A stretch of DNA of 64,000 bases from positions 1 to 64,000 of the IMG/VR virus record IMGVR_UViG_2899924645_000001; one strand, given 5' to 3'. The stretch is from a virus (Duplodnaviria; Caudoviricetes). Position numbers and translations under genes: made by a program. Below the pieces are notes generated by a model. It made no database searches. It saw nothing but the letters and a program-made list of their open reading frames with translations, and had not been told where the DNA came from. Positions 32,916 through 45,543 of this stretch are shown here, one piece after another (the first letter of the stretch is position 1; every line of letters starts with the position of its first letter).

Positions 32916-34358
32916 CTACTTGGCGAGCGCGAAGAACTGCGGCCGGTTGGCTCCGGCCGCGTGCACGGTTTGCAGAGCGAGCGCGCCGGTGCTCCGGTCG
33001 ATCGTAAAGACCGAGATCGTGTTGTCGCCCTGGTTCGCCGTATAGGCGAACCGGCCTGTGCGATCCACGGTGACGGAGTTGGGCGTGTTGGCGCCGACGG
33101 AGAACGGCTGGCCCGGTACGGCCGTCAGCGCGCCGGTTCGTGGGTTGATGGCGTAGGCCGAGACGTTGTGGGAATTCCTGTTCGCAACGTACACGAAGCG
33201 ACCGGTCGGATCGATGGCCATGCCAAAGGGCGTGTTACCGGAGGGCACCGAGCCGATCGAAGTCAACGCGCCTGTGGTTTGGTCAATGGAATAAGCGCGC
33301 AGGGTGCCGGGGTTGTTGCCAGTGCTCACGTAGGCGAAACGGCCGCTGGGTTCAGCCGCGACGTCGACGATGCCGCTGACTGGCAGCGCAACCGACGCGG
33401 GTGGCGAGATCGGAACGCCGGTGCCCTGATCCAAGCGGAACACCTCGATGGACGCGCCGTTGGGCACGAACGCGAATCGCCCCTCGGGATCGAAACCTAA
33501 CTTGCGACTGTTGCCGCCGGCCACGGCCACGGCCGTGCTGCCGTCGAGGTCGCCGGTGGTGGCGTCGATATTGAGCCGATGGATCTGCCCATCGCCGATC
33601 ACGTAGGCAAAACGTCCCTTGGGTTCGACGCCGACAAAAACCGGGCTCGTGCCGACGCCGGTGGTCAGATTGAGGTTCTGCGACAGCGTGCCGGCGGGGT
33701 CGATGGTGGATTGAGTGACGCCTTCGGTCCCGACGTAGACGCTGGTGTAGAGCTTTTTCCCCGAGGGATGCGCGGTCACGTGCTGGGGCGTGCCTGCCAA
33801 GGGGTACGCAGTGGCTGCTGACAAGCTGCCATCCGGAGAAACGGTGTATGCAGTCAGACTGTTCGATCCCTCATTGGCCGCAAAGCCGAAACGGTCGGCT
33901 CCGGCCTCCGAGCAATTGACCGTCACCGAGCTCACCGCCGCCCCCGCAACCGTTCCGAAGGCCTGTTTCGCAACACAGACCTGCAGCGCCGTGGGCTGCG
34001 TCTTCACGGTCACGCCGTACTCGGCACCGTCGTCCAGCGAAGAAGCGAAGCTGAAGCTCCCGTCGGCGGCTACGGCCAGGTCGTCACCTGCGTTGTTCTG
34101 CAGCACCAGCCCGCTGCCTGCCAGGCCGGTGACGGTGCCGCCGACAGTGAACTTCAGCGCGCCCGCTGGCGGCGCAGGGGGAGGCGGCGGCGGCGGTGGC
34201 GGGGGTGGCGGCGGCGCGTCGCCTACGCCGCTGTTGGCCGGAGGAAAGGGACCAAAGGAGAAGCCTCCGCCTCCACCGCCGCCGCACGATGTAAGCATCA
34301 AGGGCACGGCGATGGCCAGGGCGAGGCTCAGGCGGGTGCGACAGGGCAGTGGCGGCAT
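32916..34358 (-). CDS. Lipoprotein with Pro/Gly linker, Ig-like domain and lactonase-type beta-propeller (moron)
   Basis: Lipobox LMLTS-C, poly-G/poly-P, repeated DPxGRFAYV blades. Confidence 0.8.
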   Translation of the reverse strand: MPPLPCRTRLSLALAIAVPLMLTSCGGGGGGGFSFGPFPPANSGVGDAPPPPPPPPPPPPPAPPAGALKFTVGGTVTGLAGSGLVLQNNAGDDLAVAADGSFSFASSLDDGAEYGVTVKTQPTALQVCVAKQAFGTVAGAAVSSVTVNCSEAGADRFGFAANEGSNSLTAYTVSPDGSLSAATAYPLAGTPQHVTAHPSGKKLYTSVYVGTEGVTQSTIDPAGTLSQNLNLTTGVGTSPVFVGVEPKGRFAYVIGDGQIHRLNIDATTGDLDGSTAVAVAGGNSRKLGFDPEGRFAFVPNGASIEVFRLDQGTGVPISPPASVALPVSGIVDVAAEPSGRFAYVSTGNNPGTLRAYSIDQTTGALTSIGSVPSGNTPFGMAIDPTGRFVYVANRNSHNVSAYAINPRTGALTAVPGQPFSVGANTPNSVTVDRTGRFAYTANQGDNTISVFTIDRSTGALALQTVHAAGANRPQFFALAK

Positions 34359-34675
34359 TTCTTTTACTTTAGGAAACAAATGTGGCGGCGATGTTATCGG
34401 GACGCGCTGCCATTTGCACGCCCCGCGGCTGGCCGCCACTTCGTGCCAGATGCTGTCGAATTCAGCCACTTCGTCCAGCGTCGCACCGCCGTGGTGGTTT
34501 GGATGACGCAGATTCGCGCAGATGGCCTCCAAACACGACTTGTTCGCTCAAAGGTCCCCTTGCCCTTGCCTTGGGCCGCTCGGCCTCTCCATGGGGCTGC
34601 CACGGGCCTCGTAGCGATCCCGCCGCCTCCACGACCGTCCCCCCGACGCGGGCCGCCCGTCCCCGCCGACGCGCG

Positions 34676-34694
34676 GTCTAGCCCCCACCGAGCC
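34676..34694. other. Candidate P2-type cos site
   Basis: GTCTAGCCCCCACCGAGCC followed by CGCGGGCTTCG; 11/19 identity to the P2 cohesive end (GTGCTTTCCCCGCCTCGCC); downstream of Q. Confidence 0.5.
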
Positions 34695-35120
34695 CGCGGG
34701 CTTCGGGTAGTTGTTTTTACGACCCGGTCGGTGAGGTTTTAGGGGGGGCGGGTGTTGGAGCCGCGGTTGCTGTGCGAGGAGCGCCCCATGTACCCGTTAT
34801 TACGGGTTTTTCTCTCGTTATGCGTCGCGAGCCGGAGCTGTCGCAGCTGCGGGCTGTCTTGGGTAGACCAACACGTACGGCTACAGCTGGCCTTAGCCGT
34901 CGTTCACTGGCGAGAAGCGACCGACCGCGATTGTTGCGGTCTCGTCCCGAAGCCGCCGGATGACTGCCGTCATCGAAAGCTGACGTAGCTAACGCTCGGC
35001 GTTCGAGTACGCGGCGCGTCGTGGGCGTGCGGAAGCGTTGATTTGAGTCAAATATGTTACAAATGTGTTATATATGTAGGGGGCCACGCGGTCTCCGGGA
35101 AACGCAGAGGAGAACAAGCG

Positions 35121-35987
35121 GTGCATCCCTTTAGCCTAGGACAGGAGTACGAGCGAGCTGCCTTGCTCTCCTTCGTCGGCAGCCGCCAAGCCCAGCCAGG
35201 GGTGATCTGGGGAAGTAGGGAGCCAGGCTGCGTCATCTGTACTTCAGGAGGCCGGCACGGCAAGCAGGCCGGGTACGTGGACGGGCAGCAGCCTGATGGT
35301 TCGTGGGTCTACGTGGGCCAGGGCACTAGCGGGGACCAGCGACTTGAGAACTCGGCGAACGCGAAGCTCGCATCGTTCGATCGATCTGTGTTGCTATTCA
35401 CCACGCGCGAGCCCAACTCCAGGGAGATTGCGCTGCGCGGGTACGGCAAGCACTACGTCTTCCGAGGTGCATTCAATGTCGCTGGCTTCGAGTTCTTCTC
35501 CCCCGACTCGGGATCGAGGAAGGGCGACCGCCTGCTGCGATTCTTCTTAATGCCGGCAGACGACAGCTACATTGAAAGCCAAGCGTTCGAGCCGAGCGTC
35601 ACCGCTGAGCACGAGTTGTCACTCCGTGCCATGCAATTGAAGCTTCGCGAATTAGCAAGTCCAGCCAAGCAGAAGAGGCTGACGACGATCGAGTACCGAG
35701 CGCGCAGTGCGGCAGTGCATCGATACGCGTTGGCCAGGGCGAAGGGTAGTTGTGAGTGCTGCGGCTTGGGCGCACCCTTTGAAAGCGATCAGGGCATTCC
35801 ATACCTGGAGGTGCATCATCTCTTGAGGTTGGCAGACGATGGTCCTGATGCGCCAAGCAACGTAGCTGCCGTTTGCCCGAACTGCCATCGTGCCCTGCAT
35901 CATTCCAAGGGACGAGCTGCTCTCGCGGCGTCGTTGCGTTTGCGGGTTGCGAAGTTCGAAGATGAAATCGTCCATGCGCCTGGGTAA
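35121..35987 (+). CDS. HNH endonuclease with N-terminal SRA/PUA-like domain (type IV McrA-like)
   Basis: YVGQGTSGDQ..N SRA-like motif; CECC..LEVHH..DAPSNVAAVCPNCH; GAGGAGA RBS before GTG at 35121. Confidence 0.8.
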   Translation: MHPFSLGQEYERAALLSFVGSRQAQPGVIWGSREPGCVICTSGGRHGKQAGYVDGQQPDGSWVYVGQGTSGDQRLENSANAKLASFDRSVLLFTTREPNSREIALRGYGKHYVFRGAFNVAGFEFFSPDSGSRKGDRLLRFFLMPADDSYIESQAFEPSVTAEHELSLRAMQLKLRELASPAKQKRLTTIEYRARSAAVHRYALARAKGSCECCGLGAPFESDQGIPYLEVHHLLRLADDGPDAPSNVAAVCPNCHRALHHSKGRAALAASLRLRVAKFEDEIVHAPG

Positions 35988-36099
35988 GCGCGGCCCTTCA
36001 ACGAGCCTGGGCTTGGGCGTTCGATCCCTCTTGAGCAGGCCAGCGCCAACGACGTACCGTCACCGACAATCCTGTCCGTCCAACTAGAACACGCACTCG

Positions 36100-38469
36100 A
36101 TGACATCGAAAGAACTCCACTTCGACGTAAGCACGGGCTTGAAGCGCGTCATCGGACGCGACTTAATCACGAACGACGAAGTCGCCATCTTCGAGCTCGT
36201 CAAGAACTCTTTCGATGCTAACGCGCGGAACGTGCAACTGTACTTCTCGTCGCAAGGCCTGATCATCGTCGACGATGGCAAGGGCATGACGTATGACGAC
36301 CTGACCAAGAAATGGCTGTTCGTCGCGTATTCGTCCAAGAGCGGCGGGGCTGGCGCATCGGCCGCGCCCGGCCAGTTCCGAGAGCTGATCGCTGAGCGCA
36401 GGCACTACGCTGGCAGCAAGGGCATTGGGCGGTTCTCGTCTGACAGGCTCGGCAGCACGCTGCTGATGCAGACGCGTTCATCGGCGGAGAACGGGCCGGT
36501 CCACGAGGTCTTTGTCGACTGGGGCTTGTTCGAGGCCAACCTGCGAGAACAGTTCGGGAATATTCCAGTGCGCTACACGGAGCGCGAGGCATTCACTTTG
36601 CCCCCAGAGGTAGACGTTCCCGATCACGGCACGGCGATCTTCATTAAGGTCAACCCCGAGGATCGATTGCCCTGGGACCGGCATCGAATATTGCAGCTTA
36701 AGGCGTCGCTCGCGAAGCTCATCAATCCGTTCGGTAGCGGTGTCGATGGATTCCAGATCAACATCATTGCGCCGGAGGAGGAGGAGGCCGACAAGGCGGA
36801 GGCCCAGTCTCCTCGGAGGACGGAGGAGCTCAGCCCGAACGACGTCGTCAATGGCCACGTCGGTAACTTCATCTTCTCGACCCTACGGGACAAGACGACC
36901 TTCATCGAGGTGTGGTTGTCCGACGACGGCGGTTTCATCAACAGCGCGCTGACCGATCGGGGCGAACTGGTGTATCGGATTCGGGAGCCGAATCCTTACG
37001 AGTGGCTCCAGCAATCCGGATTCAGGTGCGAGCTCTACTACCTAAACCAGTCGGCGAAGACGACATTCGCCCGTCGGATGGGCGTGTCGTCCGTCAAGTT
37101 CGGGTCGGCCTTCCTCTTCCGCAACGGGTTCCGGGTCTATCCGATAGGCGAGGAGGGCGATGATTCGTTCGGGATCGACCGACGGAAGCAGCAGGGCTAC
37201 GCACGCTTCCTTGGAACCCGGGACATCATCGGGCGCCTGGACGTCTCCGGGCCAGAAGATCTGTTCAAGGAGGCCTCCAGCCGGAACCAGGGCTTGATCG
37301 ACTCGGCTGCCGTTGACGAGTTGAAGGCATGCTTCTGGGAATATTGCCTCAAGCGGCTCGAGCGCTACGTCGTGCCAGTCACGTGGGCTGATCGAGCGGA
37401 AAAGGACACGGAGGATCTTTCTCGCTTGCTGACAGACTCGGGCAAGGCTCGCGTTGCTAGCGCCTTCGCGAAACTTATCGACGACGCCGATGTCGAGGTG
37501 CTGGAGTACAGCAAGAAGCTAATCGGCATCTTGAACGAGCGATCGAGCCAGTTCGAGGAGTCGATGGTCAGCCTCCGCGCCATCGCGCTCAAGAGCAGCG
37601 ATGTGGCGATGCTTGAAAGCCTCGACCGGGCCGAGACGCGTTTCGCGGAACTCCGGCGGGCGGAATCCGAAGCTGTCAAGATCGCAGGCGAGGAGCGACG
37701 TGCGCGCGAGGCTGCTGAACGCATCGCGGAGCAAGCAAGGCAAGACGTCAATCGTCTCGAGGTCGATCTCGGCGAGGAGCAGAAGCGCACGCGCTTCCTC
37801 ATGTCGATCAAGTCCCTCGACCACGACACGATCCTGAACCTGCACCACCAGATCACCATCTACGCCGCCGACGCCAAGCAGCAGATCGAGAATTGCATCG
37901 CCGCGGCGAAAGTCAACGGACTCTCTCCCGAAGAGACCGTGGCCCGGCTGGAGAATATCGCCTTCCTGAACCACAAGGTGCTATCGATCTCGAGGTTGGC
38001 GACCAAAGCGAACTTCAGGCTGGAGTCCGACTATATCGAGGGAGATCTGGCGGCCTACGTCGACGACTACCTTACCCAAGGAGCGGCACCGTTCCTCGGC
38101 TCGGGCATTGAGCTCAAGGTGGGCCGGCACGATGCGGTTCTAGTCAAAAGGTTTCGGCCGATCGAGGTCTCGATCGTGATCGACAACCTTATCAGCAACG
38201 CCGAGCGAGCTCGCGCGACCGAGGTCGTCTTTGATCTCTCGAATCCGGACAAGAAGACGTTGCTTATGACGGTCACGGACAACGGTCGGGGCATCTCCCA
38301 TTCGATCGCGGACGTGGAGCAGATCTTCGAGCTCGGGTTCTCCAGGACTTCCGGCTCGGGGATCGGGATGTACCACGTCCGGCAGGTACTTGGGGAGATG
38401 GGCGGGAGCATCTCGGTGGATACCGCCGTCCGACGCGGTGCCAAGTTCGACGTTAAGGTGACCGCATGA
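36100..38469 (+). CDS. GHKL (MORC/MutL-like) ATPase fused to a C-terminal histidine kinase
   Basis: N-terminal ELVKNSFDA, DDGKGM, GSKGIGRF; coiled coil; LHHQI H-box, DNLISNA, DNGRGI, FELGF..GSGIGM. Confidence 0.9.
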   Translation: MTSKELHFDVSTGLKRVIGRDLITNDEVAIFELVKNSFDANARNVQLYFSSQGLIIVDDGKGMTYDDLTKKWLFVAYSSKSGGAGASAAPGQFRELIAERRHYAGSKGIGRFSSDRLGSTLLMQTRSSAENGPVHEVFVDWGLFEANLREQFGNIPVRYTEREAFTLPPEVDVPDHGTAIFIKVNPEDRLPWDRHRILQLKASLAKLINPFGSGVDGFQINIIAPEEEEADKAEAQSPRRTEELSPNDVVNGHVGNFIFSTLRDKTTFIEVWLSDDGGFINSALTDRGELVYRIREPNPYEWLQQSGFRCELYYLNQSAKTTFARRMGVSSVKFGSAFLFRNGFRVYPIGEEGDDSFGIDRRKQQGYARFLGTRDIIGRLDVSGPEDLFKEASSRNQGLIDSAAVDELKACFWEYCLKRLERYVVPVTWADRAEKDTEDLSRLLTDSGKARVASAFAKLIDDADVEVLEYSKKLIGILNERSSQFEESMVSLRAIALKSSDVAMLESLDRAETRFAELRRAESEAVKIAGEERRAREAAERIAEQARQDVNRLEVDLGEEQKRTRFLMSIKSLDHDTILNLHHQITIYAADAKQQIENCIAAAKVNGLSPEETVARLENIAFLNHKVLSISRLATKANFRLESDYIEGDLAAYVDDYLTQGAAPFLGSGIELKVGRHDAVLVKRFRPIEVSIVIDNLISNAERARATEVVFDLSNPDKKTLLMTVTDNGRGISHSIADVEQIFELGFSRTSGSGIGMYHVRQVLGEMGGSISVDTAVRRGAKFDVKVTA

Positions 38470-39392
38470 GGCTCGACTTCACGATTCTGTGGATCGATGA
38501 CCAGCCGCAACATATCCGGAGCTTCGAAGAAGGACTGAGAAATGCTTTGGACGCCCTGGGTTTCAAGCTAACCGTCATCCCCGTCGCTGGCTTGGACGCC
38601 GTCGATGCGACGGTGTCAGAGCATGTCCACGACGACGCAATTGATCTGGTGTTGGTGGACTACGACTTGAACGGGAAGGGCACCGGGGGCGAGGAGGCCC
38701 TCCTTCAGGTGCGAAAGAAGCTGCCCTTCAAAGACGTGATCTTTTACTCGGGCACCGACGTGAAGAAGCTCCGGGAGATCGCGTACAACGCCGGCGTCGA
38801 CGGCATCTATTTCTCGTCGAGGCCGGGGCTTGTCGGCAACGCGACGAAGGCGATCCAGAAGCTCCTAAGCAAGGTCATGGACCTCGACCACATGCGAGGC
38901 GTGGTTATGTCAGCCTCAAGCGACATCGACTTCGTTGTGGAGCGCAGCCTGCTCAAAATGCATGATGCGCTGGATGAAGCGGAAAGGGCGGCCCTGCATG
39001 CCGAGATCGTCGCCGAGCTGCGAGAGAAGCTCAAGAAATGGAGCGACGAGCTGGAAAAGGTAGGCTCGAAGGGGGACTTCGCCAGCCTGATGAAGAAGAA
39101 GCACATCTTCACCGCTTCGGACAGACTAGGCAGCCTCTTGAAGCGGCTCGCATCCTGGGAAGCGGAGCACGACGGAACGCGTTCTAAGGTTGACAACTAC
39201 ATCAATGGCGTCGTTCAACGGCGTAACAAGCTCGCGCACGCGATGCTACGGCGCCAAGACGGCAAGCTGCGGATGGTCGGCATGGAGCAAAACTGGACGG
39301 CCGAGGAAATGACCGCCCTGCGGCGAGAGCTGATCGACCACCGCGACAACTTTATGCTCATCGCGGTATTGCTGGACGTCAGCCTGGACTAG
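38466..39392 (+). CDS. Response-regulator receiver domain fused to a HEPN-like helical domain
   Basis: ILWIDD..DLVLVDYDL..IFYSG receiver; C-terminal RNKLAH (RxxxxH) at 39222-39239; ATGA-coupled to the kinase. Confidence 0.75.
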   Translation: MRLDFTILWIDDQPQHIRSFEEGLRNALDALGFKLTVIPVAGLDAVDATVSEHVHDDAIDLVLVDYDLNGKGTGGEEALLQVRKKLPFKDVIFYSGTDVKKLREIAYNAGVDGIYFSSRPGLVGNATKAIQKLLSKVMDLDHMRGVVMSASSDIDFVVERSLLKMHDALDEAERAALHAEIVAELREKLKKWSDELEKVGSKGDFASLMKKKHIFTASDRLGSLLKRLASWEAEHDGTRSKVDNYINGVVQRRNKLAHAMLRRQDGKLRMVGMEQNWTAEEMTALRRELIDHRDNFMLIAVLLDVSLD

Positions 39393-40674
39393 GCACCGAA
39401 GTCGCCAGCCACACGGCTACAGACTTCCCGATCGCTTCCGCCATCAGCGGGGGAACCGCGTTCGCGACCTGCGTGAAACGAGGAACCTCCTGTTTTCGAA
39501 GCTGGCCACCCGTCGTGTACTTGCCCCGGAATTGGAACCAGTCTGGAAAGCTCTGCAGCCGCGCATTTTCTCGTACCGTCAGGGTGCGAGGCTCGCGGTA
39601 GTGCAGCAGGTCGTCCGGCATGCTCGTGATAGTGGGCGACGGACGATCGGGATCGAGCACCCGTAGCGCCATTTTCTTGAGGCCGAATGATTCCCGGAGT
39701 TCGCGACTGATCGACACGTTCAGTCGGCCATCCTTGTGCGATATGTCGATGATCTGTTCGAAGCGTTTGACGATCTCGGGCCTGTGGCGCGCCAGCCTGG
39801 AGCTATCAGGCGTCGTCTCGCTTCCTGCTCGCATGAGCTTCTGGAAATTCGTCCTCGCGGGCCCGTAGGCGATCGCGCTGAACCCCTTGCTGTCGGGGCA
39901 GTCGATGACGCTGCCGCGCGCGAGCTCGAGATCCGATATGGCAGCGGAAGCGCTTGTGGTCGTTAGGAGCCCCTTGGATTGCAGGAATTGGTTACGGCTG
40001 CCAGTCAAGGCCTCGAAGGGATCTTGAGATTCCTTGAGCTCCTTCCGCAGGCCCAGCAGAAAGAAACGCACCCTGGCCTGGGGTACGCCGTAGTCCGACA
40101 CCTTGATCATCTTCCAGCGCACGCGGTAGTCCTTCGACAGCTCGCGCACCAACTTCTCGGCGTAGTTGATGCGGCCGTCGTTGCTGGATTCGTCCACGAA
40201 GTCCACGGTGATCCCGTTGACATTCTCGATCAGGACCGCTCGTGGGCGAACCTTCCGCACGAGCTTCAGGTAGCTGTCCATCAGGGCATTGCGCGGATCT
40301 GCGGCATTGCGACGTCCAGCGCTGGAGAATCCCTGACACGGCGGGCCGCCGGCCATCAAGTCGACTTTACCGGACAGCGACGCCAGCTTCCCCGAATGCT
40401 TGGCAAGCAGTTCCATGGCGCAGATCGGCTGTTGCGGTAGCCATGCCGGCCATTGGTAGCAATGCTCGCCCTCGCGCGCCAACAGGTTCGTCTTCAGGGT
40501 TTCAAAGGCAAATTTATCCTTCTCAACCGCGAAGAGGCCATTCCAGCCAGCTTGCATCAGGCCAAGGCTAAGGCCGCCGCAGCCGGCGAAGACGTCGATG
40601 AACGTCAGGCGCTTCGTCTGGGCAGTGCTTGCCTCCTCGCCGCCGTCCTGGGGGGGACTTTTGACTTGTAGCAT
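39379..40674 (-). CDS. C5 DNA cytosine methyltransferase
   Basis: FAGCGG, GGPPCQGFS, ENV, QARVR, RENARLQSFPD, QVANAVPP; convergent with and overlapping the receiver gene by 14 nt. Confidence 0.95.
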   Translation of the reverse strand: MLQVKSPPQDGGEEASTAQTKRLTFIDVFAGCGGLSLGLMQAGWNGLFAVEKDKFAFETLKTNLLAREGEHCYQWPAWLPQQPICAMELLAKHSGKLASLSGKVDLMAGGPPCQGFSSAGRRNAADPRNALMDSYLKLVRKVRPRAVLIENVNGITVDFVDESSNDGRINYAEKLVRELSKDYRVRWKMIKVSDYGVPQARVRFFLLGLRKELKESQDPFEALTGSRNQFLQSKGLLTTTSASAAISDLELARGSVIDCPDSKGFSAIAYGPARTNFQKLMRAGSETTPDSSRLARHRPEIVKRFEQIIDISHKDGRLNVSISRELRESFGLKKMALRVLDPDRPSPTITSMPDDLLHYREPRTLTVRENARLQSFPDWFQFRGKYTTGGQLRKQEVPRFTQVANAVPPLMAEAIGKSVAVWLATSVPSPG

Positions 40675-41247
40675 ACCGGTCTAGTTGATACTGAGGGTCG
40701 AAGTATCGCGGAACCGCGCTGATTGCACCAGGTGCAATTGCCTGAAGATGCGCGTTGCGGTCTCGACTACGCTGCATGCTGTGGGACTAAGCTCGCCAAG
40801 CGAAGCTTCGGTCCATCGACCAGGGTTGGGGTACCAGACGTGCAGACGTCTGCACATCCTCGCCGTGGTGAAGGTGATGGGCGACCGAGGCAGGCGATCG
40901 GCGGCTGGTCAAAGTTCTCCTGCATCGCTGCCCTTCCGGTGTTTAGAAGCGCTCGACGGGAGTTGTCGGATAACCAAACCATTAATCTCATACGTCCTCT
41001 CCGCCGAGAGGTCTCCTAAGCGTGAGCTGACCTTTGTGGCGTCGACTTGAACTACCGCTGTCGCTGACCTGCCGAAATTGGGCCGACAAAACGCACCGCC
41101 GGACGGCGAACCGATCAGGAGCTGTCGGTGGGGGTGTGCGAGGCAAGGACATCAACCGCTGCCAAGCACATGTGCGCAGCGGTCCCGACCCGTTGCCTTC
41201 GAGTTCTAAGCCGATCGGTCCTGGACCTCAAGTAGGTAGTCAAATTT

Positions 41248-41266
41248 TATGGCCTGTTGTATGGCC
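41248..41266. repeat. Direct repeats TATGGCC, candidate integrase arm sites of prophage 1 attR
   Basis: 41248-41254 and 41260-41266, 12-nt period, about 55 nt left of the att core. Confidence 0.45.
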
Positions 41267-41320
41267 GGTAGAAATGAATGATGAGTTCAAAGGGCCCATG
41301 AATACAGCATTCTTCGCGGT

Positions 41321-41334
41321 CACACTCTCCGCCA
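41321..41334 (+). other. att core: duplicated 3' end of a tRNA-Ser-like gene (CACACTCTCCGCCA)
   Basis: Acceptor-stem 3' strand plus discriminator G plus CCA; no intact tRNA body upstream; lies at the prophage junction. Confidence 0.65.
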
Positions 41335-41357
41335 GAATCAATCTCTGGCAGTTTTTG

Positions 41358-41391
41358 AAAGTCCCGCGCAGTCCCTGCGACGGGACTTTTT
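41358..41391 (+). terminator. Rho-independent terminator (possibly bidirectional)
   Basis: AAAGTCCCG-CGCAG..CTGCG-A-CGGGACTTTTT. Confidence 0.75.
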
Positions 41392-41458
41392 CATTGGAGG
41401 ATTGGTCTTTGTGAGTCTCGAAGGGTCCGGCGCGAAATCTCCCCAGCCCGGCTCCCAA

Positions 41459-41496
41459 CATGGCATCAGTCATGGTATTTTCCTGCGGATACCATG
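41459..41496. repeat. Candidate arm sites of prophage 2 attL
   Basis: CATGGCAT 41459-41466, CATGGTAT 41471-41478, inverted ATACCATG 41489-41496 overlapping the int start. Confidence 0.5.
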
Positions 41497-42657
41497 ACAC
41501 TCACCGTTAAAGCTGTTGACGCGGCCAAGCCGCGCGAGAAGGCGTACAAGTTGGCGGATGCCCACGGCCTCTACCTCTACGTTTCGCCCAAGGGCGCAAA
41601 GAGCTGGCGGGCCAACTACACGGAAGCCGGAAAGCAGAAGACGCGGACGTACGGCCTCTACCCTGGGGTGAGCCTGGCCGAGGCGCGAAAGGCCCATTCA
41701 GCGGGGCGAGAAGAGGCTCCAGCGCCAAAGCTGGCGCCGACATTCGAGGCGGTAGTGCGCGACTGGCTGAAGGCGAAGCTGCCGACGCTTTCCAACGGCA
41801 AGCATCAGATTCAGGTGGCGAACACCTTGGAGCGCTACGCGCTGCCGTTTCTCGGCAAGCTGCCTATCAACGCGATTCCGAGGTCAGAGCTGGTGAAGGT
41901 GGTGCGTGCTGCCCAAGCGGGCGGAAAGATCGAAACCGGACATCGCGTCGCGAGCCGGATTTCGGCGGTTTTCGATTTCGCCCAAGACACCGGGCTGATA
42001 GAGCAGCATGGCGCAGCCGGCCTCACGCGCGTGCTCATCGCGCGCAAGACAAAGAAGCCGATGGCAAGCATCCCTCCGGAAGAGGCCGGAGTGCTGATGC
42101 GCGCCATAGATGGATATGACGACTCAGTAACCCGGCTCGGGCTGCTGCTGCTCGCGCACACCTTCGTCCGGGTTGGTGAGTTGAGGGGGATGCTATGGGG
42201 GGAACTGAAGGAAGGCGGCGCGGTGTGGGTCGTTCCCGAGACCCGAATGAAGATGCGCATGCCGCACGTCGTGCCTCTCTCGCGACAGGCTCAGTCAATC
42301 CTTGCAAAGCTGCGCGAGATGAGCGGCGACGGTGCGCTTGTGCTCGATTCGCCCATTCATCCGGGGCACCCGCTGTCGGAGAACACCTTTCTGTTTGCCC
42401 TGTATCGGCTTGGCTACCGTGGGCGGATGACGGCCCACGGGTTCCGCGCCTTGGCTTCGACAGTGCTCAACGAGCGGTCGGGGTTTCCGCATGACGTGAT
42501 CGAGCGGCAGCTCGCGCACAAGGAGACAGACGCTGTTCGCGCGGCGTACAACCGCGCTGAATACCTTACGCAGCGCCGTGAGCTGATGCAGTGGTGGTCG
42601 GATTGGCTGGAGGCGGCTCAACGAAGCGACGAAGGTCCGAGACCCGCCAGCGCGTGA
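41494..42657 (+). CDS. int: Tyrosine integrase, P4/IntS-type
   Basis: KAYKLADAHGLYLYV..KSWR; TFVRVGELRG; HGFR; QLAH; AYNRAEY. Confidence 0.95.
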   Translation: MTLTVKAVDAAKPREKAYKLADAHGLYLYVSPKGAKSWRANYTEAGKQKTRTYGLYPGVSLAEARKAHSAGREEAPAPKLAPTFEAVVRDWLKAKLPTLSNGKHQIQVANTLERYALPFLGKLPINAIPRSELVKVVRAAQAGGKIETGHRVASRISAVFDFAQDTGLIEQHGAAGLTRVLIARKTKKPMASIPPEEAGVLMRAIDGYDDSVTRLGLLLLAHTFVRVGELRGMLWGELKEGGAVWVVPETRMKMRMPHVVPLSRQAQSILAKLREMSGDGALVLDSPIHPGHPLSENTFLFALYRLGYRGRMTAHGFRALASTVLNERSGFPHDVIERQLAHKETDAVRAAYNRAEYLTQRRELMQWWSDWLEAAQRSDEGPRPASA

Positions 42658-42802: not shown

Positions 42803-43248
42803 TGGCTGATTCCTTCCTCTGCCGCGGCCTGGCGGCGAATGCGCGCGAGCGATTCGATGAATGCATCGAACATCTGCCTTGGCGAGCTGTTGCGGGTTAT
42901 TTCTTCGCAGACCTGGAGGCCGGCGGCCATCGCTTGCAGGCCGGGTCCGTCGAAGCCATAGCGGCCGTGTCGGCCGTGAATTGCGTCGCAGCGGCGAAGC
43001 GCGTCTGCTGCGGCGCGGAGGGGCGCGAGGCAAAGCTCGTCTATCTGCTCGGCGCGCACCATGACCGTATTCAGGTGCGTGCTGAGCCTGTCGAAAAGCT
43101 CGTCGTCGGTGCTGCCCGTCTTCAGGTCTGCGAAGGCGCTGTAGACCTTGGTCATGATGTCGTCACCGGCCGGGATGTTGTGCACCTGACGTGCGGCGAC
43201 AGCGACAGCGACCATCGCGGGGCGGACGCGGCGGCTGTTGCGCTTCAT
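42799..43248 (-). CDS. Hypothetical phage protein
   Basis: Coupled ORF in the early operon. Confidence 0.55.
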   Translation of the reverse strand: MKRNSRRVRPAMVAVAVAARQVHNIPAGDDIMTKVYSAFADLKTGSTDDELFDRLSTHLNTVMVRAEQIDELCLAPLRAAADALRRCDAIHGRHGRYGFDGPGLQAMAAGLQVCEEITRNSSPRQMFDAFIESLARIRRQAAAEEGISQ

Positions 43249-44162
43249 GCGGACTCCCTGATTTGGACGATCAGGTCGCGTGCGACGGGCGGGCATACGG
43301 CGTTGCCCAGCATGTGCATCGCGGCCTTGTGCTGCGGCGGCAGCTTGTAGTCGGTCGGGAAGCCCATAGCGGCGCGCGCTTCATTGGCTCGCAGCATCCG
43401 CATACGGTTGCCGCGCACTAGCGCCCACCGGTCAACAGTGGTGATGGTCCCAATGGGGCGATGGATGCTGCGGCCGGTGAGGCCCGAGCCGCTACCGTAG
43501 TAAGGGATCAGGAAGCGTCCGCATGCAAGGTCCCTGCGGCCCTGATGGATGCGCCGGAGCGTTGCCGGACTACGCTTTGCGGTCCGGATGGGCGACCATG
43601 TGCCCGCCTCGAAATCGACGATGGCGCTCGCGGGAACATGGTCGCGCTGCGGCAGCTTGAGCGTGATGGGATTCCTGCTGCGCGTGCCGACGACGAAGAG
43701 CCGGGCGCGGTGTTGAGGTACGCCGTGGTCTGCTGCATCGATCACCATGGGCGCCAGTGCGTACCCGAGCCCTTCCATGGCGAGAGCCCAGGCGGGATAG
43801 AGAGCCCAGTCGATGAAGGCCGGCACGTTCTCGACGATGAACACCGGCGGGCGGTGGCATTCGGCGGCCGACACGACAGCCCATGCCGTGCTTCGCAGCG
43901 CGTCGTGGTGAGGCTTCTCCTTGCCTCGGGCCGGGCTGTGCCCTTGGCAGGCGGGCGAGGCCAGCAGCAGATCGTGCGCCGGCACCTCGCGCCAGTCGGC
44001 CTGCTGCAAGTCCTGGCATGCGTGCACGGTGCCCGGGTGGTTGGCCGAGTGAATTTCTACGGCGGCCTGCCAGTGGTTCGCCGCCCACACTACGCTGCAG
44101 CCCGCTTGCGTTGCTCCAGTCGAGAAGCCGCCAGCGCCGGCGAAAAGGTCGATGGCCTTCAT
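43245..44162 (-). CDS. C5 DNA cytosine methyltransferase (phage orphan)
   Basis: DLFAGAGG, ASPACQGHS, VENV, QHRARLF, LGNAVCP. Confidence 0.93.
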   Translation of the reverse strand: MKAIDLFAGAGGFSTGATQAGCSVVWAANHWQAAVEIHSANHPGTVHACQDLQQADWREVPAHDLLLASPACQGHSPARGKEKPHHDALRSTAWAVVSAAECHRPPVFIVENVPAFIDWALYPAWALAMEGLGYALAPMVIDAADHGVPQHRARLFVVGTRSRNPITLKLPQRDHVPASAIVDFEAGTWSPIRTAKRSPATLRRIHQGRRDLACGRFLIPYYGSGSGLTGRSIHRPIGTITTVDRWALVRGNRMRMLRANEARAAMGFPTDYKLPPQHKAAMHMLGNAVCPPVARDLIVQIRESA

Positions 44163-44818
44163 CGCTTGGCCCCCAGTCCCGCGAGAGTTCGAGCCACCTG
44201 CAGCTCGGCGAAGCGCGTGAGAAAGCGCTCGCGCCAGTCCTTCCACGTCGCGGCCTCGCGCTCGGGCGTGTCGAGGCGAACCCAGTCGGCGGGCGCGACC
44301 GGCTGCAGCGTGTTGTCGTTGAGCGCGGGCCACGGCATGTGGCGCGAGGGGTTGTAGGGCGTCAGGTCGCGGCGAGCCGTGGCGAGCGCCTGCAGGTCGA
44401 TGGAGCGCAGAAACTCGCGATGCCCGGCGAACACCGACAGAAGCTTGAAGTGCTCGCGCACGCCCTTGGCATGCTCGGCTTCGAAGGCGTGCCATGCGCC
44501 GACGCCGAAGGCCATGCTGTAGCTGTTGACGGCTTGCTTAGCGGGACTGATGAGGTCGTTGGTGTATGCCTCGTGCGCGTCGTGCAGCAACGCTGCCATC
44601 TGCACGAACACCGATGCGCCGGCGCGCTGGGCGATGTCGCAGCACAGGAGGCTGTGCTCGGCCACGCTGTAGGGGCGCGACGTGGCGCCGTTGAACTGGG
44701 CGACGATGGCGAGGTGGTGCGCCACGTCGTTGATGTCCACGGGGCGGCCGCATGCGCCGTAGGCGGTGGGGCCGGCGAGGTGGTACTCGGCGCCGCTTGC
44801 GGTCAGCATCCACGTCAT
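44159..44818 (-). CDS. HD-domain phosphohydrolase (YfbR-like)
   Basis: RF/QFNGATSRPYSVAEHS..LLHDAHEAY. Confidence 0.85.
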   Translation of the reverse strand: MTWMLTASGAEYHLAGPTAYGACGRPVDINDVAHHLAIVAQFNGATSRPYSVAEHSLLCCDIAQRAGASVFVQMAALLHDAHEAYTNDLISPAKQAVNSYSMAFGVGAWHAFEAEHAKGVREHFKLLSVFAGHREFLRSIDLQALATARRDLTPYNPSRHMPWPALNDNTLQPVAPADWVRLDTPEREAATWKDWRERFLTRFAELQVARTLAGLGAKR

Positions 44819-45012
44819 TGCACGCCCCCCGATTGCTGTTGCAGGCTGCGGGCGAGCAGGGCGGCGCGGTGGTCGTTGAACACCTTCTTGAAGTGCTGCC
44901 CCGAGCGTTCGTCGAAGGGATAGCTGCAAGCGAAGTTGAGCGAGTGGCCGGCCTCGGCCGCCTCCTTCGCTTCGCGCTCGATCTTGTCGAGCGACACGAT
45001 GGGAAAGTCCAT
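44815..45012 (-). CDS. Hypothetical phage protein
   Basis: MDFPIVSLDKIEREA; ACSYPF. Confidence 0.55.
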   Translation of the reverse strand: MDFPIVSLDKIEREAKEAAEAGHSLNFACSYPFDERSGQHFKKVFNDHRAALLARSLQQQSGGVQ

Positions 45013-45034
45013 GGAGTCTCCGGTGACTGGGTAG

Positions 45035-45376
45035 TTAGGCCGCGTGGGCCGGGGCTGGGGCGCGTGCGGGCAGCAGCTCGCACGAGGTGATGGCGGCGTG
45101 GATTTCGGGCGCGTGCGCGCCTGGCATCGAGCGCGGGTTCGCGAGCACCAGGCGCAGCGCATCGCCGGCCTTCAGGCTGCGATGCTTCGCGCGCCATGCA
45201 GCGGCCTCGGGGCCGACCCAGCGCACCACGTAGACCTCGACCGCACGAGGGCCTTGGTTGTCTACGACGCGCATCTTCAGGACGAAGGCGCCGGAGTCGT
45301 TCGTGTGCTCGCTGACGGCGGGTCGCGTGGCGTGGTCCTTGCCCACGAAGAAGAGCCCTGTCGTGGTCGTCGTCAT
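45035..45376 (-). CDS. Hypothetical protein, possible OB-fold
   Basis: beta-rich; coupled ORF. Confidence 0.5.
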   Translation of the reverse strand: MTTTTTGLFFVGKDHATRPAVSEHTNDSGAFVLKMRVVDNQGPRAVEVYVVRWVGPEAAAWRAKHRSLKAGDALRLVLANPRSMPGAHAPEIHAAITSCELLPARAPAPAHAA

Positions 45377-45543
45377 TGCTGCGCACCTCGCTGCATCTCG
45401 GCGCGGATGCGCTTGAAGGTCTTGCGGATGTCAGTGGCGACGGCCGGCGTGTATTGGAAGCGGTCATCGGCGAGGCCGCCGACCGGGCCGGTGCGCTGCG
45501 GCTGCTTGGGCCGGCGCGGGCGAGGGGAGGTAATCACGATCAT
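45373..45543 (-). CDS. Small hypothetical protein
   Basis: FQYTPAVATDIRKTF motif; ATGA coupling. Confidence 0.5.
   Translation of the reverse strand: MIVITSPRPRRPKQPQRTGPVGGLADDRFQYTPAVATDIRKTFKRIRAEMQRGAQQ

Follow-up and report, generated by a model that had tools for sequence, protein, structure and literature searches.

Two-component proteins encoded beside C5 cytosine methylases were described computationally by Bellieny-Rabelo, Pretorius & Moleleki in 2021 (Genome Biol Evol, PMC8011034), who reported kinases carrying HATPase_c_3, HEF_HK and HATPase_c domains together with Response_reg_2 partners, C5 methylases and Vsr. These authors proposed that such proteins regulate restriction-modification (R-M) systems, and HEPN domains are not mentioned in their paper. 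A further related system, Ambrosia (AbrR, AbrA, AbrB, AbrC and AbrD; 2025 preprint, bioRxiv 10.1101/2025.09.30.679545), is anti-phage and requires the receiver Asp; its genes are induced on infection, its receiver is reported as a transcription factor of the winged helix-turn-helix (wHTH) type, and the model put forward is one of transcriptional induction. Here, we analysed a response regulator gene at 38466..39392 (+ strand) of a 64,000-nucleotide stretch of a Caudoviricetes provirus (IMG/VR record IMGVR_UViG_2899924645_000001, positions 1 to 64,000; this whole stretch is called the window below). We found that the gene belongs to a conserved cassette with a kinase and a C5 methylase, and that the C-terminal domain of its product is probably a divergent HEPN domain.

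The receiver open reading frame (ORF) runs from an ATG start to a TAG stop and encodes 308 aa, which the translation and an AlphaFold2 model divide into a receiver (REC) domain (residues 1-134; 38466..38867, +) and a C-terminal helical domain that we read as divergent HEPN (residues 135-308; 38868..39389, +). An initial annotation of the window had placed this frame and its motifs as we find them, but it had treated the gene in isolation, while the gene is actually one part of a conserved kinase-receiver-methylase cassette. The gene for a 789-aa soluble kinase lies upstream (36100..38469, +; Pfam, NCBIfam and a 54-sequence alignment), and its stop codon shares 4 bp (ATGA) with the receiver start codon. 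On the other side, the gene for a 431-aa C5 cytosine DNA methyltransferase (39379..40674, - strand; Pfam DNA_methylase E 2.4e-51, PADLOC MTase_II E 8e-82) is convergent with the receiver gene, the 3' ends of the two overlapping by 14 nt. We propose that the receiver is the effector of this methylase-linked two-component cassette and that a phosphorelay would switch a HEPN RNase serving in defence or addiction, a proposal to which, taken as a whole, we give about an even chance of being right. The cassette probably serves in immunity or addiction, with phosphorylation as its means of signalling.

The linkage of the three genes was evaluated in ten loci fetched by identity and in 74 loci from GTDB. 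In 72 of the 74 GTDB loci, the gene immediately upstream of the receiver encodes a kinase of ~790 aa. Nearly all loci with sufficient flanking sequence have a C5 methylase homologue no more than ~3 kb away. In most cases the methylase gene is convergent, and in some it lies upstream in the same orientation; the order varies and the linkage is kept. Vsr is present in ~25 of the 74. The flanks of the cassette vary from locus to locus and include genes of integrative and conjugative elements or type IV secretion systems, a Tn7-like transposon, an insertion sequence element, genes for type VI secretion system effectors and a filamentous prophage; the cassette is mobile. Its hosts belong to about a dozen phyla and include Alpha-, Beta- and Gammaproteobacteria, Acidobacteriota, Cyanobacteria, Bacteroidota, Verrucomicrobiota and Chlorobiota. 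Identity across loci is 33-36% for the receiver, 52-57% for the kinase and 55-60% for the methylase, the receiver being the fastest-evolving of the three proteins. Relatives were found on only six IMG/VR contigs, and a tblastn search of the PLSDB plasmids gave no match at E <= 1e-5. Some loci depart from the common arrangement. In Massilia (L007 and L044), the kinase and receiver genes are followed by Vsr without a C5 methylase and then by a gene for a 1843-aa protein, while in L005 the kinase is split over two ORFs and the methylase is shortened to 290 aa; the latter copy may be decaying, or these variants may be assembly errors.

The window cassette shares several features with the HEF_HK/Response_reg_2 class: the kinase is soluble and has HATPase_c_3 at its N-terminus and HATPase_c at its C-terminus, a receiver-like gene adjoins it, a C5 methylase gene and often Vsr are tightly linked, and the distribution is broad and patchy. 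In contrast, the window kinase has no match to HEF_HK (PF19191) even at E <= 10, and the window receiver matches Response_reg, with only 7 of 96 divergent members of its family weakly matching Response_reg_2 (PF19192; best E 0.021). Response_reg_2 proteins are encoded by open frames of 567-817 aa, and the seven that were scored showed no similarity to the tail of the window receiver. At the Response_reg_2 loci (L132-L140), a long uncharacterised region follows the receiver.

The full-length AlphaFold2 model was built from a 112-sequence alignment and has a mean predicted local distance difference test (pLDDT) score of 90; residues 1-137 adopt the (beta-alpha)5 receiver fold with high structural confidence. 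The protein carries the motifs WIDD (D11 and D12), LVLVDYDL (D65, codon 38658-38660) and FYSG (S95), which supply the acidic pair, the phospho-acceptor and the Ser of a REC domain. Among the 96 members, D65 is invariant, and D12 and S95 are each kept in at least 90%. The protein had initially been called a canonical receiver; the fold and these residues bear that out, but the beta5 Lys does not, as it is replaced by Arg in the window protein (R119-P120; 38820-38825) and in at least 90% of the members. R119 is a conservative but unusual substitution for the receiver Lys.

The likely phospho-donor is the translationally coupled kinase, phosphotransfer itself being predicted. From its N- to its C-terminus, the kinase has a GHKL ATPase of the paraMORC/MutL-like type, a middle region that is strongly conserved, a coiled coil, an H-box and a histidine kinase (HK) catalytic domain; Pfam places HATPase_c_3 at residues 27-131 and HATPase_c at 690-787. 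The N-terminal part bears the Bergerat motifs ELVKNSFDA, DDGKGM and GSKGIGRF and is most similar to the N-terminus of the BbrUII/HgiDII restriction enzymes (NCBIfam E 8e-17). Conservation in the 54-sequence alignment covers H583-Q584 (H583 codon 37846-37848), the N, G1 and G2 boxes and the Bergerat motifs of the N-terminal part.

Beyond the receiver, the model consists of helices 140-168 (H1) and 171-202 (H2), two shorter helices at 205-210 and 217-228 that make up an insert (205-228), helix 233-257 (H3), a beta-hairpin at 260-271 and a last helix at 279-302 (H4). When the C-terminal domain was modelled alone, it had a pLDDT of 91. The window protein bears MRGVVMSASSDID at residues 143-155 and RRNKLAH (R253, N254 and H258) at the end of H3. 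The former is part of a helix-1 motif, D139-x2-H142-x-R144-G145 ... S152-D153-x-D155 (38880..38930, +), which emerged from conservation and from the alignment with RiboL-PSP HEPN, and the latter holds R253-N254-K-L-A-H258 (39222..39239, +), the candidate catalytic Rx4H motif. The tail had been described in the initial annotation as a helical domain ending in RxxxxH. It is indeed helical and has R253-N254-x3-H258, but it extends beyond the motif, which is followed by the hairpin and the last helix (~50 aa). About 0.37 RxxxxH motifs are expected by chance in 174 aa of this composition, so the motif in one sequence means little, and its conservation is what counts.

We found ~130 homologues of ~308 aa, and conservation was measured in 95 cluster representatives, none of which are more than 50% identical to one another and which are 22-39% identical to the query; the alignments exclude locus L122 of the unpublished genome G388. 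R-[polar]-x3-H is kept in all 95 representatives, and the conservation of RxxxxH among homologues was thereby established. R144, G145, R253 and H258 are invariant in the tail among the 96 members, and D139, Y245, N254 and R286 are kept in at least 90%. Even at 25% identity, one clade still has MRG...E-C-D and RN-x-L-G-H. The tail evolves faster than the REC domain of the same protein, and the invariant set of polar residues within it suggests an active site. A profile of the domain alone retrieved 654 clusters at 50% identity from a library of 1.84 billion proteins; nearly all of them are 300-320 aa long with the domain at ~134-305, so it is almost always fused to a receiver. Rare longer architectures were also observed: P0214 (846 aa) has ~540 N-terminal residues, then a REC domain at 549-625 and the same tail at 648-816, and P0201 (420 aa) is another longer protein with this tail.

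HEPN domains have a four-helix up-down core whose third helix ends in an Rx4-6H motif, the Arg being followed by a polar residue; helices 2 and 3 are often separated by an insert, and Csx1 has a hairpin immediately after the motif (PMC3710099). The predicted order of secondary-structure elements in the tail (H1, H2, insert, H3, hairpin and H4) fits this description, and its Rx4H motif has the polar N254 after the Arg. Among the 96 members, matches to Pfam families other than REC families fell on HEPN_RiboL-PSP (5), HEPN_Apea (5), HEPN_MAE_28990 (4) and HEPN_Swt1 (2), 16 in total, and no other such family was matched more than twice. The window protein itself matches HEPN_Apea (E 0.006-0.026) and the PADLOC Cas13-ApeA model (E 1e-3). 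When a profile of 207 sequences of the domain was compared by hhalign with 28 RiboL-PSP HEPN sequences taken from genomes, helix 1 was aligned with Prob 61% and a score of 33.3, and the extended alignment was colinear, with R144...D153 placed on R...E and RNKLAH on RNKIAH. Control scores were far lower: 9.1-9.3 for reversed alignments, at most 13.6 for 30 column shuffles, 16.4 for the helical middle region of the kinase and 12.8 for the REC domain. As a positive control, ApeA and RiboL-PSP, both accepted HEPN families, were aligned with each other with a Prob of only 27%.

The tail shares with the RiboL-PSP/MAE_28990 (PF18735, PF18737) and ApeA HEPN domains an RN-x-[LI]-[AS]-H motif that closes a long helix, the R...acidic motif of helix 1, in its model an all-helical core with an insert, and use in defence genes; HEPN domains of the PF18735 type are found in defence genes that have been validated (PMC10952713). 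It differs from them in its setting, as those domains stand alone or have other N-terminal fusions, and its similarity to them is found at the profile level only. No fusion of REC with HEPN was described in the 2013 HEPN survey.

Several observations weigh against this interpretation of the protein. All HEPN matches of single sequences are below the Pfam thresholds, and in the alignment A4 HEPN_Apea was matched by one of nine members. PF18735 and PF18737 match the same proteins and thus count as one family, not two. The hhalign Prob of 61% is suggestive and not proof, and the confident stretch covers 27 columns of helix 1; against ApeA, hhalign aligned the motif RNxxxH alone (Prob 4%), as it did with a shallow alignment of nine sequences of the domain (Prob 2.4%). 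The replacement of the receiver Lys by Arg means that phosphorylation-driven switching may depart from the textbook route. The Ambrosia authors, moreover, interpret their own receiver as a wHTH transcription factor.

Structure and sequence searches were also performed with the tail. Foldseek against PDB, a wide VIA-align search with re-ranking and a search of viral models in BFVD gave nothing above the helical-hairpin background, which is evidence neither of a new fold nor of a non-HEPN one. When PDB was searched by sequence, using the whole protein as well as profiles of the family and of the domain, nothing meaningful emerged, and low E-values fell only on low-complexity matches to designed armadillo repeats; the ESM Atlas returned only unnamed clusters and a REC-fused cluster from Bacteroidota at a template modelling (TM) value of 0.82. 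The HEPN-like output proposed in the initial annotation is backed by the invariant RNxxxH, its place at a helix end, the recurrent HEPN matches in Pfam and the profile alignment, but not by the fold searches. While these searches gave the tail no identity, several weaker lines agree on what is probably a divergent HEPN domain, and we consider it quite likely that the tail belongs to the HEPN superfamily.

On the reading we favour, the sensor would be the paraMORC/MutL-like GHKL head of the 789-aa protein, homologous to the BbrUII/HgiDII-type N-terminus, and its target would probably be DNA in a state determined by the neighbouring C5 methylase. The kinase would then autophosphorylate on H583 and hand the phosphate to D65 of the receiver. 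Phosphorylation would switch on the tail, predicted to be a divergent HEPN-type, metal-independent RNase, whose site would be formed by R253, N254 and H258, probably together with R144 and D153 of helix 1. Receiver-driven dimerisation is the likely switch. Cleavage of RNA would stop the growth of an infected cell, or of a cell that had lost the methylase.

Parallels to parts of this scheme are found in other systems. In Detocs, a defensive two-component system (Rousset et al. 2023, Cell), an HK-like sensor reportedly phosphorylates a receiver that has a toxic enzyme as its fusion partner where a DNA-binding domain would otherwise be. Detocs reportedly has a third protein, a "buffer" receiver, with no MORC-like sensor and no methylase partner, and its usual effector is said to deplete ATP. 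This architecture resembles the window cassette in its layout from kinase to receiver-effector and offers a precedent for use in defence. The Detocs effector is a purine nucleoside phosphorylase (PMC10952713). An unvalidated system predicted by DefensePredictor (PMC13092281) also combines HATPase and REC domains. For dimerisation, eukaryotes offer a comparison: the RNases of Ire1 and RNase L are switched on by regulated dimerisation. Their KEN domain is a HEPN-type RNase downstream of a kinase or pseudokinase module (PMC3710099); it differs from the tail studied here in being eukaryotic and circularly permuted, with kinase and RNase on one chain and without a His-Asp phosphorelay.

Ambrosia suggests a different output. 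Like Ambrosia, the window cassette clusters the genes for a methylase, a REC protein and an Hsp90/HK-like ATPase kinase, and an HNH gene is also present in the window. In contrast, the methylase of Ambrosia is of the N6-adenine type and its type IV HNH is obligatory, where we found a C5 methylase and a clade-restricted HNH; Ambrosia also includes an XRE regulator, and no XRE gene was seen among the ORFs of the window cassette. Its REC-wHTH protein and the HEPN-like tail described here are set apart by Ambrosia's description, not by sequence. On this model, the window receiver would be a transcription factor like AbrC, with a winged-helix-like helix-helix-hairpin tail that binds DNA, and once phosphorylated it would induce the methylase and the local HNH. 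This transcriptional role is the main alternative, and we think it unlikely, disfavoured as it is by the absent helix-turn-helix (HTH) signal and the catalytic-looking invariant residues. It gains from the validation and infection-induced expression of Ambrosia and the wHTH reported there, from the HNH gene adjoining the kinase in the window, and from the model, in which helix 217-228 and helix 233-257 are followed by a beta-hairpin; MarR-type regulators appear among the weak Foldseek rows, and the convergent, overlapping receiver and methylase genes could couple their expression. However, no HTH or wHTH family of Pfam matched the window protein or any of the 96 members, which agrees with the initial report of no HTH, and the would-be recognition helix has 25 residues. 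The invariant R, N and H make up the catalytic HEPN motif, while DNA-reading residues would be expected to vary. The window HNH has homologues in only two of the 74 loci (L011 and L013, those closest to the window cassette), and the P. aeruginosa member of the receiver family sits in a kinase-receiver-C5 methylase cassette and not in Ambrosia.

The tail may also be HEPN-derived or HEPN-like and yet no RNase, serving instead in binding of a ligand or nucleic acid, in protein docking, or as a nuclease or phosphodiesterase with some other substrate, for example DNA or a nucleotide signal. We hold this to be rather improbable. Many HEPN domains are non-catalytic or binding domains (PMC3710099), the additional conserved residues D139, R144-G145, Y245 and R286 suggest a site more elaborate than Rx4H, and no solved structure is closely related to the fold. 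On the other side, loss of the R or the H is usual in HEPN domains that are non-catalytic; here both are invariant across 22-39% identity, and the Asn after the Arg is as in active HEPN RNases (PMC3710099). Far less probable is that the receiver-like domain is a cREC-type enzyme, with predicted opening of cyclic phosphates, and not a phospho-acceptor, in which case the kinase-like neighbour would not signal to it. Weak matches to cREC_REC in 32 of the 96 members (best E 1.3e-4) and the exchange of the canonical Lys for Arg point that way. Against it, Response_reg was matched by more of the members (78) and with better E-values, and cREC is described as never occurring with a histidine kinase (PMC9503650), whereas here a coupled H-box kinase accompanies the receiver at nearly every GTDB locus.

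Returning to a phosphorelay that switches a HEPN RNase, we tentatively consider that the cassette could be an analogue of an R-M system in which the restriction nuclease is replaced by a signalling chain, a doubtful but possible extension. The MORC-like ATPase, derived from a restriction enzyme, would read DNA methylation, and the phosphorelay would unleash the HEPN RNase. The trigger would then be unmethylated phage DNA, or host DNA after loss of the methylase, and non-self DNA would be answered not by DNA cutting but by destruction of RNA, as abortive infection or addiction.

In the window, the cassette lies downstream of P2-type capsid, terminase and portal genes; it is carried as cargo by a P2-like prophage, immediately beyond the structural genes, a position that we take to match the slot used by P2-like phages for anti-phage cargo. 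An HNH endonuclease gene (35043..35987, +) ends 112 nt upstream of the kinase and forms a clade-specific fourth gene. In its product, Pfam recognises only an HNH domain (E 4e-9) at residues 237-287, and an "SRA" label for its N-terminal ~230 aa was not confirmed by a Pfam scan. With this HNH gene the local cassette is a four-gene variant, which parallels the type IV HNH of Ambrosia. Between the portal and HNH genes, a 538-aa lactonase-like seven-bladed beta-propeller is encoded at 32916-34532 (-; Pfam Lactonase E 8e-35), further cargo in the same slot.

About 800 nt past the cassette methylase, a tyrosine integrase (Arm-DNA-bind_3, Phage_int_M and Phage_integrase) is encoded at 41494-42657 (+), beyond which lie a second C5 DNA methylase gene (43245-44495, -) and an ORF of 309 aa (44538-45467). 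These genes may be part of a further mobile element, or of an R-M module, that adjoins the P2-like prophage. Because no tRNA gene was found within the 64-kb window, no att site was assigned. A sigma-70 promoter scan of 34400-41600 found none, against 1.4 expected by chance, and is uninformative. Rhizosphere metatranscriptome contigs from one study and one further run (X3, X4, X7 and X9) span 35078-39393 at ~94-97% identity and low depth. These contigs cover the HNH, kinase and receiver genes; as DNA may be present in the libraries, they are no proof of transcription. No contig matched the methylase part, an absence from which nothing follows. In the X3 contig, unlike sequence begins right after the receiver stop codon (39393), and a close relative may carry another gene downstream in place of the window methylase.

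If the proposed mechanism is correct, the cassette would contain a response regulator whose output is an RNase, and two-component phosphotransfer inside mobile immune or addiction modules would couple a DNA-methylation mark to the cleavage of RNA. A function would thereby be given to a widespread class of proteins, the 654 clusters described above, that carry the label "NarL/FixJ response regulator" or "hypothetical" in databases. While the sibling HEF_HK/Response_reg_2 class and Ambrosia were already known, such a finding would challenge the purely transcriptional model of related systems and would offer an RNase module that can be switched by phosphorylation.

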